The notes: a model not told the origin generated them from the letters alone. DNA of 64,000 nt from Escherichia coli (GCF_048403405.1 NZ_CP183129.1), one strand, 5' to 3'. Shown: positions 8,643-37,320, counted from the first letter of the stretch. Numbers and translations are program-made.

Positions 8643-9125
8643 ATGGCAAATATGAGTTATTTATCTTTGAGTGGAGAGACACAAGGGCTGATTTCAGCAG
8701 GTTGCTCAACGCTTGATTCTGTCGGAAACAAAGCACAGCCAGAACATAAAGATCAGATCATGGTTTATGCGTTAATGCATTCCATCTCAAGAAGTCAAAA
8801 TGTCAATCATCATGAATTAATTATCACCAAACCGGTTGATAAATCCTCACCATTGCTGGCAAAAGCACTTAGTGACAATGAAAAAATGGTAACATGTGAA
8901 TTTATACTCTACCGAACCAGTAAAGCGGGTATTTACCAGCCTTATTATAAAATAAACCTGTCAAAAGCCCGAATATCAAGTATTGATTTTGTCACACCGC
9001 ATGCTGTCCTGGAAAAAGAACTGGAGCCACAGGAGAGAATTGCCTTTATTTATGAAGATATTTCCTGGGAGCATACGTTAGCCGGTACGAATGCAATGAG
9101 TAAATGGCAGGATCGTGTACAGTAA
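8643..9125 (+). CDS. hcp: Hcp-family T6SS tube protein (divergent, encoded in AT-rich DNA)
   Basis: 160 aa, AAGGAG RBS at 8631-8636. Length and motif pattern (SSPLL-KA, Y-I-L-A-I, IAF-YE-ISW) resemble Hcp. Confidence 0.75.
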   Translation: MANMSYLSLSGETQGLISAGCSTLDSVGNKAQPEHKDQIMVYALMHSISRSQNVNHHELIITKPVDKSSPLLAKALSDNEKMVTCEFILYRTSKAGIYQPYYKINLSKARISSIDFVTPHAVLEKELEPQERIAFIYEDISWEHTLAGTNAMSKWQDRVQ

Positions 9126-9168: not shown

Positions 9169-10083
9169 ATGGCTGGTTTAAGGAATAATAACAACACACA
9201 GAATGCACAGTGGGCTGATTATGTGGGTGACATTCTTCGGGGGGCTCAACCGATAAACCAGCTAGTACCTCAGCACCCTTATCTTAACGACGTCCCACTC
9301 ATTGATGAATTAAGGCGTCAGAACACTCATCATGTTATTCTCTTGACACTTGATGTTGCAAAAAAAATACTCAGCTCAATAACATCATTTGATTACATTC
9401 ATTTTATCACTACACATCCTTCAGGTATAAAAGATACACTCGCTTGGTTAGTTAACGCGGGTAAATTAATGACTGAGTTTGATGGAAATGGGAAAATTAT
9501 ATTTAACTTTAATACCTTAAAGTATACAAAAGCAAGTTACTTTGAAATACTTGGAGAGAAATATATAAAAATTACAACATCCAGCCCCTGGCTTTTAGAA
9601 AAGCTCGGTAAATATATTTTCTCTTCACGAGCGCCTCAAGTTCTGGAACTCGCTATTGGCTGGCGAGGAGCTTTATCTGAATCAATAAAAGGAGTTAAGT
9701 TCTGTATCTGGTTTTCAGTAGCCTGGAGAACCATAGAATTTATTATGAGTTCAGAGCGAGATCTGGTTAATTTTCTTGGTGATTTTTCAATGGATGTGGC
9801 CAAAGCAGTGATTGCAGGCGGTGTTGCAACTGCTATTGGAAGCCTGGCTTCTTTTGCCTGTCTTAGTTTTGGCCTTCCAGTAATTCTTGTAGGAGGAGCA
9901 ATTTTACTTACAGGGATAGTGTGTACAGTTGTTTTAAATGAAATCGATGCTCAATACCATTTATCAGAAAAATTAAAAGATGCAATTAGAGATGGACTAA
10001 AACGGCAACAGGAACTTGATAAATGGAAAAGGGAAAACATGACTCCATTTATGTATGTTCTTAACACTTCCCCCGTGATATGA
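9169..10083 (+). CDS. Hypothetical protein; candidate Hcp-linked T6SS effector with C-terminal glycine-zipper hydrophobic helices
   Basis: ATG at 9169 with GGAG 7 nt upstream (tracked ORF begins at a TTG at 9154). AT-rich codon usage matching hcp. C-terminal segment VAKAVIAGGVATAIGSLASFACLSFGLPVILVGGAILLTGIVCTVVL. Function is inferred from context only. Confidence 0.55.
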   Translation: MAGLRNNNNTQNAQWADYVGDILRGAQPINQLVPQHPYLNDVPLIDELRRQNTHHVILLTLDVAKKILSSITSFDYIHFITTHPSGIKDTLAWLVNAGKLMTEFDGNGKIIFNFNTLKYTKASYFEILGEKYIKITTSSPWLLEKLGKYIFSSRAPQVLELAIGWRGALSESIKGVKFCIWFSVAWRTIEFIMSSERDLVNFLGDFSMDVAKAVIAGGVATAIGSLASFACLSFGLPVILVGGAILLTGIVCTVVLNEIDAQYHLSEKLKDAIRDGLKRQQELDKWKRENMTPFMYVLNTSPVI

Positions 10084-10247
10084 GGATTAACTATGCGTTT
10101 ACATGTTAAATTGAAAGAGTTTTTTTCGATGTTTTTTATAGCCATATTATTTTTCCCTGCATTCAATGCTTCTTTATTTTTTACCGGAATTAGGTGATGC
10201 TGCCAACTTACTGATTTAGTGTATGATGGTGTTTTTGAGGTGCTCCA

Positions 10248-10523
10248 GTGGCTTCTGTTTCTATCAGCTGTCCCTCCTGTTCAGCTACTGACGGGGTGGT
10301 GCGTAACGGCAAAAGCACCGCCGGACATCAGCGCTATCTCTGCTCTCACTGCCGTAAAACATGGCAACTGCAGTTCACTTACACCGCTTCTCAACCCGGT
10401 ACGCACCAGAAAATCATTGATATGGCCATGAATGGCGTTGGATGCCGGGCAACCGCCCGCATTATGGGCGTTGGCCTCAACACGATTTTCCGCCATTTAA
10501 AAAACTCAGGCCGCAGTCGGTAA
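10248..10523 (+). CDS. insA: IS1 InsA (transposition inhibitor / N-terminal part of transposase)
   Basis: 91-aa ORF beginning [43 protein letters not shown], inside IS1. Confidence 0.9.
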
Positions 10524-10945
10524 CCTCGCGCATACAGCCGGGCAGTGACGTCATCGTCTGCGCGGAAATGGACGAACAGTGGGGATACGTCGGGGCTAAA
10601 TCGCGCCAGCGCTGGCTGTTTTACGCGTATGACAGGCTCCGGAAGACGGTTGTTGCGCACGTATTCGGTGAACGCACTCTGGCCACACTGGAGCGTCTTC
10701 TAAGCCTGCTGTCGGCCTTTGAGGTCGTGGTATGGATGACGGATGGCTGGCCGCTGTATGAATCCCGCCTGAAGGGAAAGCTGCACGTAATCAGCAAGCG
10801 TTACACTCAGCGAATTGAGCGGCATAACCTGAATCTGAGACAACATCTGGCAAGGCTGGGACGGAAGTCACTGTCGTTCTCAAAATCGGTGGAGCTGCAT
10901 GACAAGGTCATCGGGCATTATCTGAACATAAAACACTATCAGTAA
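10442..10945 (+). CDS. insB: IS1 InsB reading frame (expressed as InsAB' transposase by -1 frameshifting)
   Basis: -1 frame ORF overlapping the end of insA, translation typical of IS1 InsB ([21 protein letters not shown]...). Confidence 0.88.
10496..10505 (+). promoter_or_regulatory. IS1 programmed -1 ribosomal frameshift site TTTAAAAAAC
   Basis: A6C motif lies in the insA/insB overlap; the IS1 frameshift mechanism is established knowledge. Confidence 0.8.
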
Positions 10946-11484
10946 GTTGGAGTCATTACCCGGAATTAAACCTCTATATTCAATAATAAAAGGCTCCACG
11001 GAAATATTTTATGATTGGAGAATGTTGATTCTATGCTTCGGTTTCATATCGTTTTCCTTGTTAAATATTCATGTAATTTTACTAACAATAATAAAATCAT
11101 TCTTAATAAAAAAAACAAAGGTAATCAATTTCGCCACAGACATAACAATACAGCTAACTCTTATATTTTTACTAATAGCTATCGTAATAGCACCTTTAAT
11201 AGCTCCTTTTGTCACAGGATATGTCAATGCTAATTGTCACCCCTGCGGTAATAACACGGGGATTTTCCCAGGAGCAATCTATATTAAAAATGGCATAAAA
11301 TGTAATAATGAACATATTTCTCGCAAGGAAGATTAAGCAGTTAAATAATTAAATATTCTAAAACAAACAGTTTTTAACGCCGGATTCCATGTCCTTTCTT
11401 GCACTGTCTTTGTCAGGAACAATTTCTTATGCAAAGAATTTTGTATTATTGCCGCCAGAAATTCCTGGCGGCAGATATAATTTA

Positions 11485-12270
11485 TTATTGATAGCGGTTA
11501 ACCAAATCTTTTACCATCGCTTTATAGGTCTTTTGCTTAAGTTGTATGATTTGCTGCTCTGTCATATCAGTCGTACTGGCTTCATTCTTGCCGGGAAATG
11601 GTGGAAGCACTTTATATTCATAATTCACCGGCGACCAGGCAGCCCACTCACCTGTAGCTACATCCACCAGCGTGAATCGCACCAGATAGCGCAGTGAGAT
11701 TGTGTTAGTCAGTTTTTCATTTTTATAATCGGACCATACTGTTGATTTCAGTGCAGTGTCATATTTTCCTGTCTGCAACGTATCCTGGTAAACAATAATC
11801 GCTTTCTGATGGCCTTTTGCCGCCACAAAACGTAATGCCTGCATCCAGTTCATATTTTCAGCACTGGCAACATCCTCGTTCTCATTTTTATCTTTGTTTT
11901 TGTTACAAGTCAGAGGCTTTTGTCTGTCCGGGATACCAGAGAATGTGGAAACAGTATAATATTTTCGCATCTCCTCCTGCATAATGGTTTCCGGTGCGCG
12001 ACTGCCAGACTGGACAAGTATTACGGGAGAATTGAGAGGCACACGAAACTCATCTCCTTCAAGCGCAGCCTGAATATCCTCCTCGGATACAGCCAGAGTG
12101 GTTTCATTACCGAATAAATCTTTGTCTGTCAGTTGCGGGGGAATGTTTTTATTAATATTACTTTGTGTAACTTGAACTTTTTTCTTTTTTTCATCAATAG
12201 AAGATTGAGAGGCACATCCTGCAAGCAGCGAGAATAATACACATATGCAACAAACCTTTTTTGAATTCAT
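11485..12270 (-). CDS. yafT: Lipoprotein YafT
   Basis: 261 aa with lipobox LLAGC after a signal peptide; lies next to aspV as yafT does in K-12. Confidence 0.8.
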
Positions 12271-12596: not shown

Positions 12597-12673
12597 TGGC
12601 GGAACGGACGGGACTCGAACCCGCGACCCCCTGCGTGACAGGCAGGTATTCTAACCGACTGAACTACCGCTCC
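12597..12673 (-). tRNA. aspV: tRNA-Asp (GTC)
   Basis: Reverse complement reads GGAGCGGTAGTTCAGTCGGTTAGAATACCTGCCTGTCACGCAGGGGGTCGCGGGTTCGAGTCCCGTCCGTTCCGCCA. Confidence 0.97.
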
Positions 12674-12805: not shown

Positions 12806-13537
12806 TTATGCCCGCCAGAGGCAGCTTCCGCCCTTTTTCTGCACCAGATCGAGACGGGCTTCATGTGCCGCAAGCTCTTCATCTGTCGCAAAAACAACGC
12901 GTAACTTACTTGCCTGACGCACAATGCGCTGAATTGTTGTTTCACCTTGTTGCTGTTGTGTCTCTCCTTCCATCGCAAAAGCCATCGACGTTTGACCACC
13001 AGTCATCGCCAGATAAACTTCCGCAAGGATCTGGGCATCGAGTAATGCCCCGTGCAACGTTCGTTTACTGTTATCTATTTCGTAGCGGGCACATAACGCA
13101 TCGAGGCTGTTGCGCTTACCGGGAAACATTCTCCTCGCCACCGCAAGGCTATCGGTGACCTTACAGAAGGTATTGGTCTTCGGAATATCGCGCTTAAGCA
13201 ACGAAAACTCGTAGTCCATAAAGCCGATATCGAACGCTGCGTTATGGATCACCAACTCCGCGCCGCGAATATAGTCCATGAACTCATCGGCTACTTCGGC
13301 AAACGTGGGCTTATCGAGCAAAAATTCATCGGCAATACCATGTACGCCAAAGGCTTCCGGATCCACCAGCCGATCGGGTTTGAGATAAACATGGAAGTTA
13401 TTGCCCGTCAGGCGACGGTTCACCACTTCAACGGCACCAATCTCAATGATCTTGTGGCCTTCATAGTGCGCGCCAATCTGGTTCATACCGGTGGTTTCGG
13501 TATCGAGAACGATCTGGCGTGTAATTGCAGTGCTCAT
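12806..13537 (-). CDS. dnaQ: DNA polymerase III epsilon subunit (3'-5' proofreading exonuclease)
   Basis: Translation [20 protein letters not shown]...GGSCLWRA, 243 aa. Confidence 0.97.
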
Positions 13538-20820: not shown

Positions 20821-20897
20821 TGGCGGAACGGACGGGACTCGAACCCGCGACCCCCTGCGTGACAGGCAGGTATTCTAACCGACTGAACTACCGCTCC
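20821..20897 (-). tRNA. aspU: tRNA-Asp (GTC), distal tRNA of rrnH
   Basis: Same sequence as aspV, located just downstream of the 5S gene. Confidence 0.97.
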
Positions 20898-36022: not shown

Positions 36023-37320
36023 TTAACTAAGCGTTTTCTGCCAGACAAAACTGACGCCATTCTCACCTTCAGCCACACCTTCTTGCGTCACAAATACCCC
36101 TGCCGCCGCAATCAACGTTTCGCCATAAAACAGCAGTGGCGTGGTGTCACGTAGCCACGGCGGCACACCCAGCTCTTGCCAGATTTTCTTCAGCTTACGT
36201 CCGCCGTTGCGCCCGATAATATGCAGCAATCCTGGCGCTTTGAAACGCACGCTGACCGCTTCGTCTGCACGCGGAGGGCGAATATCGCCTCCCGCAGTAA
36301 GCTGTACACTTCCCAGTCCCGCCGGTAATTCCAGCGGTTGTAGCCACGTCTGCCACGGCACAATGGTTTCGCTTTGCCCGGCAACGGATTTAATCCACCA
36401 CAGTTGCGACTGATAGCGGCGGATTTCAAACGCGCCCAGACGTAAACAGGGGGAAGCATCTTCCCGCGCCAGCGCCACTTCCTGCCAGATCCGCACCAGC
36501 GCGTCGCGGGAAGGCATCGGTGCATTCTGCCCTGCCAGCCAGCGGCGGATAATTGCCGCGCGACGGGCATCACTCATCGCCAGCATTGGCGCAATCTGCA
36601 GCGTCCCCTGCGGCGTTTGGCAGTGCGCTAAATCATCTGCCAGCAATTCATCCAGCAGGCTCTCTTGTTCAGCACAAAGTGCGGCGCTGCGGGCCGTTGC
36701 GTCGGCAAAATGCGGCCAACGCTGCTGCAATAACGGCACTACGCGCAGGCGCAGAAAGTTACGATCGTATGAGTCGTCCTGATTACTTTCGTCTTCAATC
36801 CAGCGTAAACCATGCGCCAATGCCCACTGCTCCAGTTCCCCCGCGTGCGGGCGAGCAACGGGCGGATAAGCCGTGTTCCGGCAAACTCCGAAACTTCCGC
36901 CATAGCCGAAAGCCCGGCAGGGCCGCTACCGCGTTTTAGCGCCAGCAGAAAGGTTTCACATTGATCGTCGAGATGTTGCGCGGTGACCAGCACTTCGCCG
37001 GGCAATAGGGTACGGGCAAATGCCTGATAACGCGCCTGCCGCGCCTGGGCCTCAATCCCCAGCCCCTCTTGCGCAAGTTGTACGCGTTCGACCACCAGCG
37101 GCACCTGCCACTGTTGGCAGATGTTCTCGCAATGCCTAACCCAGGCATCGGCATTGGCACTTAAACCGTGATGCACATGGATAGCGCGTAGAGTGACGCC
37201 CGGATTTTCCGTCCGCCACTGCACCAACTGATGCAGCAAAACGGTGGAGTCAAGCCCGCCGCTAAAGGCCACCAGAATCTGGCGTGAGGTGAGAAGTTGT
37301 CTATTGAGCGTGAGTGTCAT
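36023..37320 (-). pseudogene. tilS: tRNA(Ile)-lysidine synthetase TilS, reading frame broken by an apparent 1-bp deletion in a homopolymer (C5 on plus strand at 36838-36842)
   Basis: The N-terminal half (36739-37320, with the SGGLDS PP-loop) and C-terminal half (36023-36820) are in different frames. One extra G in the minus-strand run would join ...LLARTRG to [17 protein letters not shown]... Confidence 0.8.

Follow-up and report, generated by a model that had tools for sequence, protein, structure and literature searches.

The window, by which we mean the whole 64-kb stretch of Escherichia coli DNA analysed here, contains a T6SS gene module at the end of the aspV-linked T6SS-1 cluster. The genes run in the order tssH, vasI, tssA, tssM, a gene with a vasL domain, hcp, and then a gene annotated as coding for a 304-residue 'hypothetical protein'. 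The hcp (tssD) gene, for the T6SS tube protein, occupies positions 8643 to 9125 on the + strand and ends 43 bp upstream of the gene for the 304-residue protein (9169 to 10083, + strand; WP_000908072.1), which is intact and whose product is a predicted membrane-disrupting T6SS effector of the Tme family (see below). Nine base pairs past the effector gene begins ykfM, also on the + strand, which is split after nucleotide 100 of 468 by a complete IS1 of 768 bp (10193 to 10960, + strand). The 5' fragment of ykfM, 100 nt long (33 codons and one nucleotide), lies at 10093 to 10192, and the 3' fragment, from codon 34 to the stop, at 10969 to 11336. Next downstream is yafT, an intact and convergent lipoprotein gene (11485 to 12270, - strand), followed by a tRNA-Asp gene (aspV) and by dnaQ. 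The window has two identical tRNA-Asp genes of 77 nt, aspV itself, beside yafT (12597 to 12673), and another distal to the rrn operon (20821 to 20897); the two cross-match when the window is compared with itself.

Anatomy and coding capacity of the IS1 element

The element is bounded by imperfect terminal inverted repeats of 23 bp, IRL (GGTGATGCTGCCAACTTACTGAT; 10193 to 10215, + strand) and IRR (GGTAATGACTCCAACTTACTGAT on the - strand; 10938 to 10960), which are 83% complementary to each other. A length of about 768 bp and repeats of about 23 bp starting with GGT(G/A)ATG are features of the IS1 family, and 10193 to 10960 has both. When the 64-kb window was searched with a degenerate IS1-end pattern, allowing up to three mismatches, two sites were returned, IRL and IRR, against an expectation of 0 in 100 shuffles. 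BLAST of the IS1 against the window found a single copy, and neither BLAST nor the end pattern revealed further IS1 copies or fragments within the 64 kb.

Between the repeats, insA (10248 to 10523, + strand; GTG start, 91 aa) and the insB reading frame (10442 to 10945, + strand; a 167-aa ORF) are both open; as in other members of the family, the two are consecutive and partly overlapping, with insB in the -1 phase. InsA, the product of the upstream frame, represses IS1, and the transposase, the DDE protein InsAB', arises by a rare -1 ribosomal slip on an A6C motif, which fuses insA to the insB frame; InsAB' acts on both 23-bp terminal repeats of the element. A programmed -1 frameshift (slippery) site of this kind, TTTAAAAAAC, lies at 10496 to 10505 on the + strand (IS1 positions 304 to 313), with the A6C motif at 10499 to 10505, in the overlap of insA and insB. 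A conceptual -1 shift on the motif yields an uninterrupted InsAB' of 232 aa (10248 to 10945), the same length as that obtained from the K-12 copies IS1A to IS1E. This protein has the zinc ribbon, helix-turn-helix and IS1-type DDE transposase domains of the family (Pfam Zn_ribbon_InsA, HTH_Tnp_IS1 and DDE_Tnp_IS1; E-values of 1.4e-19 for PF03811, 6.4e-28 for PF12759 and 4.7e-75 for PF03400), and scores 246.5 bits against NCBIfam NF033558, for which the cut-off is 100. In addition, a promoter-like site (CTGCCA, a 16-nt spacer and TATGAT; 10200 to 10227, + strand), which is a consensus match only, overlaps IRL, the known location of the insA promoter. Thus, the complete IS1 described in an earlier note on this DNA is found at exactly 10193 to 10960, with both repeats, both genes and the slippery site intact, and the disabling mutations that the note had named as evidence against itself are absent from insA, from insB and from the frameshift site.

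The target-site duplications reported in the same note are also present, in that CGGAATTA stands on both sides of the element, at 10185 to 10192 and at 10961 to 10968. The length of the duplication depends on where the IS1 is taken to end. A 9-bp string, CCGGAATTA, occurs twice, at 10184 to 10192 and at 10960 to 10968, and the canonical IRR (…CATTACC) ends with the first C of the right copy; since this C belongs to IRR, the duplication that goes with a full 768-bp IS1 has 8 bp (CGGAATTA) and not 9 bp, provided that the canonical end is kept. The sequence is also compatible with an element of 767 bp and a 9-bp duplication, the last C then being counted as target. Short target duplications of IS1 usually have 9 bp, those of 8 bp being occasional and less typical; an 8-bp duplication is also found at another IS1 insertion in E. 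coli, a few hundred bases from this one.

Relatives and distribution of the isoform

The element was compared, base by base over 768 bp, with the six copies annotated in MG1655 (IS1A to IS1F) and with the classical IS1R of plasmid R100 (NC_002134.1, 21225 to 21992). It differs from IS1B and IS1C at 23 positions, from IS1D at 25, from IS1A and IS1E at 28 and from IS1F at 56, and is therefore identical to none of the K-12 types (IS1A/E, IS1B/C, IS1D, IS1F). The earlier note had expected many differences from the K-12 copies, and had named identity to a standard one as evidence against its view; such identity is absent, even the nearest copies being 23 differences away. The note had, however, placed the differences in the central part of the element, whereas in IS1A to IS1E, which have 768 bp and the same architecture, the substitutions fall almost all in IS positions 487 to 750, that is, in the 3' third. 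The InsA proteins of IS1B, IS1C and IS1D are identical to that of the window element, and the InsAB' proteins of IS1A to IS1E differ from its InsAB' at seven to eight residues. Within IRR, at IS position 750, the window element has a G and IS1A to IS1E have an A.

The R100 copy has the same length, ends and organisation as the window element and is 97.3% identical to it overall, with no differences in positions 1 to 486 (which include IRL, insA and the frameshift site) and 21 substitutions in positions 487 to 768; its InsB differs by six amino acids, at InsAB' residues 145 to 162. IS1F has the reverse pattern, with 47 differences in positions 1 to 486 and nine in positions 487 to 768. No other K-12 copy is as close to the window element in the 3' third, and the two share an 18-residue stretch of InsB; at InsAB' residues 145 to 162, where the window protein has the six changes relative to K-12 (IS1A to IS1E) and R100 IS1, it matches IS1F. 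The insB of IS1F, unlike that of the window copy, is interrupted by a stop codon, and IS1F carries a pseudogene annotation. Because of the identity to R100 in positions 1 to 486 and the reverse pattern of IS1F in positions 487 to 768, the element is a mosaic, with an R100-type left two-thirds and a right third from a lineage nearer to IS1F. Mosaic IS1 copies were reportedly described by Lawrence, Ochman and Hartl in 1992.

This isoform is in wide circulation. In 1690 of the matching E. coli records the best copy is at least 99% identical, and copies identical over the whole 768 bp are found on many E. coli chromosomes and plasmids, in contexts as unrelated as the interior of air/eaeX, the interior of a DUF4942 gene and a site beside IS10. 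The plasmids with identical copies come from E. coli, Klebsiella, Enterobacter, Citrobacter and Vibrio cholerae. There are 95 contigs that encode exactly this InsAB' and 276 that encode exactly this InsB. On the chromosome of E. coli MS 69-1, a query made of the IS1 and its flanks matched 10 places, about nine of them IS1-related, of one isoform or another, besides the ykfM locus. The exact protein carries the generic NCBI name 'IS1 family transposase', in contrast to IS1A-, IS1B- and IS1F-like copies, which get specific names, and in the literature search isoform names turned up in plasmid annotation papers only. With IS1 among the best-known insertion sequences and the exact isoform in thousands of public records, we regard the window IS1 as an already known element, a widespread mosaic isoform, which is itself of little import. 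The earlier proposal of a distinct isoform holds in relation to the K-12 copies, but the isoform is common elsewhere and hence not new. The occurrence of identical copies in many different contexts is the best available evidence on mobility, and because of it we consider that the isoform transposes and is almost certainly still able to do so.

The insertion site and the predicted effector-immunity pair

When positions 10193 to 10968 (776 bp) are deleted, the remaining sequence matches an uninterrupted site at 100% over 2038 bp, in one piece, in E. coli MS 69-1, TUM1226 and OX030728. The left 10192 bp of the window have no differences from MS 69-1 (NZ_CP146675.1), and in the right 53 kb there are one substitution and an indel of a single base. 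As both flanks are collinear with that genome, no deletion or inversion accompanied the insertion; the earlier idea that an IS1 here could drive such rearrangements was a generic one, and none is seen at the locus. The ykfM::IS1 junction is absent from 5426 complete E. coli genomes, queried with the IS1 and its 500-bp flanks, and also from metagenome contigs, searched with the exact 40 nt of the left junction. Where a complete genome seemed to cover the full query, the match was made up of three or four pieces and came from other IS1 insertions nearby. The G+C content is 32 to 37% in the flanks, against 53% in the IS1; IS1 prefers AT-rich targets, and the flanks fit this preference. With a target duplication and with an empty site in a genome near-identical over 63 kb, what had been taken for a simple and relatively recent transposition is best described as a private, very recent and simple one. 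The insertion could thus be used as a marker for this strain, in a lineage close to MS 69-1.

Over 63 kb, a single substitution separates the window from MS 69-1; it lies at position 13019, in dnaQ (- strand), where codon 173 specifies E in the window and D in MS 69-1. In tilS (- strand, about 36023 to 37320), a C-run at about 36838 is one base shorter than in MS 69-1, which shifts the frame of this essential gene after about 160 codons; this is probably a homopolymer sequencing error in the window assembly, and single-base details of the sequence are therefore to be taken with some caution.

Other IS1 copies have also entered this part of the chromosome. In 38 complete genomes, an IS1 lies within the 1768-bp query region (the IS1 and its 500-bp flanks). 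In other E. coli genomes, independent insertions of other isoforms were seen at the ykfM stop, in the ykfM-yafT spacer and at the 3' end of yafT (L006 2367-3134, L007 2385-3152 and L008 2559-3326), with the duplications GGAAGATT, AATAATTAA and CGCTTTATA, respectively. This suggests that the stretch from ykfM to yafT is an AT-rich hotspot for IS1.

The effector gene and the interrupted ykfM resemble a known kind of effector-immunity pair. Tme was defined as a family of membrane-disrupting T6SS effectors by Fridman and co-workers, who proposed DUF1240 and DUF1240-like proteins as the corresponding immunity family, Tmi (Fridman et al., 2020; PMC7046647). In their Supplementary Data 5, WP_000908072.1 of MS 69-1 is listed as a Tme protein (residues 122 to 277, E of 1.74e-37 by RPS-BLAST), with Hcp 43 bp upstream and WP_001236628.1, a protein of 155 aa with three helices, 9 bp downstream; the first predicted transmembrane helix of the latter, YkfM, comprises residues 12 to 32 (PMC7046647). 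The effector gene of the window is 100% identical, at the DNA level, to the MS 69-1 gene carrying WP_000908072.1, and the published RPS-BLAST result, obtained on an identical protein, thus places a Tme domain in the window effector. A gene for a small transmembrane DUF1240-like protein with three predicted helices follows after the 9-bp gap, and there is linkage to T6SS components, with hcp 43 bp upstream and tssH, vasI, tssA, tssM and vasL before it.

The 304-aa protein gave no significant hit in Pfam or NCBIfam, and its homologues are only unnamed proteins from Escherichia, Salmonella and Rahnella. YkfM alone also gave no significant direct hit in Pfam or NCBIfam and scored under the Pfam threshold for DUF1240; because of this, its link to DUF1240 is confined to profile-profile similarity and synteny. 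A profile of YkfM aligned with DUF1240 proteins at 97.9% probability (E of 5.3e-13), and YkfM is 49% identical to a Salmonella protein encoded in the same position. Moreover, Salmonella and Rahnella have the same conserved trio, made up of Hcp, a protein of about 305 aa and a DUF1240 protein; there, the effector homologue lies beside hcp and is directly followed by a protein of 149 to 160 aa flagged as DUF1240. In one Salmonella enterica contig (L011 4926-7010), the effector gene is followed by a pair of DUF1240-type genes that flank two small ORFs, an arrangement that may be an immunity-gene array. The literature search found no experiments on E. coli Tme/YkfM and no direct mention of ykfM or yafU as T6SS genes, nor did the available part of a review of the Salmonella T6SS mention the effector/ykfM pair. 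Together, the 304-aa protein is predicted to be a Tme effector and YkfM its Tmi-like immunity protein. The remark in the earlier note that the IS1 lies next to a toxin module is accordingly right in that the module adjoins it, but the element sits inside the module, in its predicted immunity gene.

Excision of the insertion restores an ORF of 155 aa, which is the ykfM annotated in MS 69-1 (WP_001236628.1). As it now stands, the 5' stub, which covers the first predicted transmembrane helix, is an ORF of 34 aa with its stop inside IRL. Another ORF, of 129 aa (10947 to 11336), starts at a TTG at 10947, inside IRR and one base past the insB stop codon, and reads into the 3' fragment of ykfM, covering YkfM residues 34 to 155. 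No outward-facing promoter-like site was detected at the right end of the IS1, and no second copy of ykfM within the 64-kb window. The insertion most likely inactivates ykfM, the predicted immunity gene (tmi), and leaves the effector gene intact. Residual function of a shortened YkfM seems unlikely, because the first helix is lost and no outward promoter was detected.

Alternative readings and comparison with known systems

Our preferred reading, to which we assign a probability of roughly 0.88, is that an intact IS1 of a widespread mosaic isoform, almost certainly competent for transposition, has very recently inserted into ykfM and has most likely inactivated a predicted immunity gene. A simple transposition into an AT-rich target, in which the 8 bp of CGGAATTA were duplicated, would have brought the element to nucleotide 100 of the 468 of ykfM, a gene for a small, three-helix, DUF1240-like membrane protein; the predicted immunity gene would be lost in this way and the Tme effector kept. 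The structure and intactness of the IS1, the existence of copies identical to it, the empty site and the disruption of ykfM are direct observations, to which the ability to transpose and the effector and immunity roles are added as predictions.

Four other accounts have to be weighed against this reading. The IS1 might be an artefact of assembly, a repeat put in the wrong place, and the same assembly does have the probable homopolymer error that shifts the frame of the essential tilS; an artefact would not, however, be expected to come with an exact 8-bp duplication and with no base missing from either IS end, and removal of the element leaves a perfect empty site, so that we give this account hardly any credence. 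We think just as little of an old insertion, fixed in the lineage. No support for it was found: there are IS1 copies near ykfM in 38 other complete genomes, but these lie at other positions, belong to other isoforms and have duplications of their own; the nearest genomes, with the site empty, have virtually no other differences over 63 kb, and the junction is absent from metagenome contigs. It is also quite improbable that the IS1 looks intact but is dead or crippled, its transposition being abolished by the IS1F-like substitutions in InsB or by the change in IRR. IS1F, which among the K-12 copies comes nearest to it in the 3' third, does have a stop in insB and a pseudogene annotation, and the six amino-acid differences from the experimentally studied IS1 of K-12 and R100 are clustered, at InsAB' residues 145 to 162. 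The insB of the window, however, has no stop codon, and the ability to transpose, which we infer from copies elsewhere, is supported by the same 768 bp at many different sites, on chromosomes and on plasmids and in several genera, a distribution that calls for recent transposition of exactly this sequence; the fresh duplication and the empty site in a near-clonal genome also argue against a dead copy.

The fourth account concerns function and holds that the insertion has no effect, a shortened YkfM still being made from the 129-aa ORF by read-through transcription and reinitiation. Such an ORF is indeed present, in frame with the 3' part of ykfM, and its product would keep the second and third helices together with a conserved C-terminal motif, which contains Cys and aligns with DUF1240 proteins. 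The product would, however, lack the first transmembrane helix (residues 12 to 32), which should upset its membrane topology, and the right end of the IS1 has no outward promoter-like site from which it could be expressed. Moreover, coupled reinitiation is expected to be weak, because an inserted IS1 is strongly polar and InsAB' is rarely translated. We consider that an effect-free insertion is unlikely, and keep as the preferred reading that of a probable loss of the predicted immunity gene.

A wider proposal can be put forward only tentatively, and we are inclined to doubt it: the strain may be a natural case of 'toxin without antidote', with IS1 as a recurrent agent of decay of the module and the yafU/ykfM remnant of K-12 as an end state. 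If this were true, T6SS-1 would be silent in the niche of the strain, sister cells would intoxicate each other, or immunity would be supplied otherwise. Independently of this proposal, a tmi-null cell would be expected to be sensitive to its kin, provided that T6SS-1 and Tme are active, and the existence of the mutant points either to a T6SS-1 that is silent under the relevant conditions or to a cost that is tolerated. As a natural knock-out of a predicted T6SS immunity gene the strain is of only modest interest, but its ykfM::IS1 allele makes it a natural mutant in which to ask whether YkfM protects against the E. coli T6SS-1 effector of the Tme family.

The pair in the window resembles Tme/Tmi of Vibrio parahaemolyticus in that a gene for a small multi-helix DUF1240-like protein comes directly past the Tme gene, with linkage to hcp and a T6SS cluster. 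T6SS-dependent secretion, toxicity in the periplasm and protection by the immunity protein were established for Tme1/Tmi1 and Tme2/Tmi2 of that species only (Fridman et al., 2020; PMC7046647). In contrast, the E. coli pair is predicted from sequence, and its immunity gene is, in the window, broken by an IS1.

A parallel case is seen at another locus of K-12, where IS1E (L004 1429-2196) interrupts yrhA, directly downstream of yhhZ, a gene annotated as coding for a putative endonuclease. The product of yhhZ is an Hcp-linked toxin, and there too an IS1 lies in the gene that follows a toxin gene.

The closest comparison is with K-12, where the aspV-yafT-ykfM-yafU remnant occupies the same locus as the module of the window. 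The K-12 YkfM is intact and 92% identical to the protein reconstructed from the window, and the pseudogene yafU (ykfM-yafU, L015 1758-2585) matches the last 112 residues of the effector with 96% identity. The K-12 ykfM has the look of an orphan immunity gene that stayed behind when the T6SS-1 cluster was lost. Thus, in K-12 the T6SS and the greater part of the effector are gone and ykfM remains, whereas the window presents the opposite situation, in which the effector and the visible part of the T6SS are intact and ykfM is broken.
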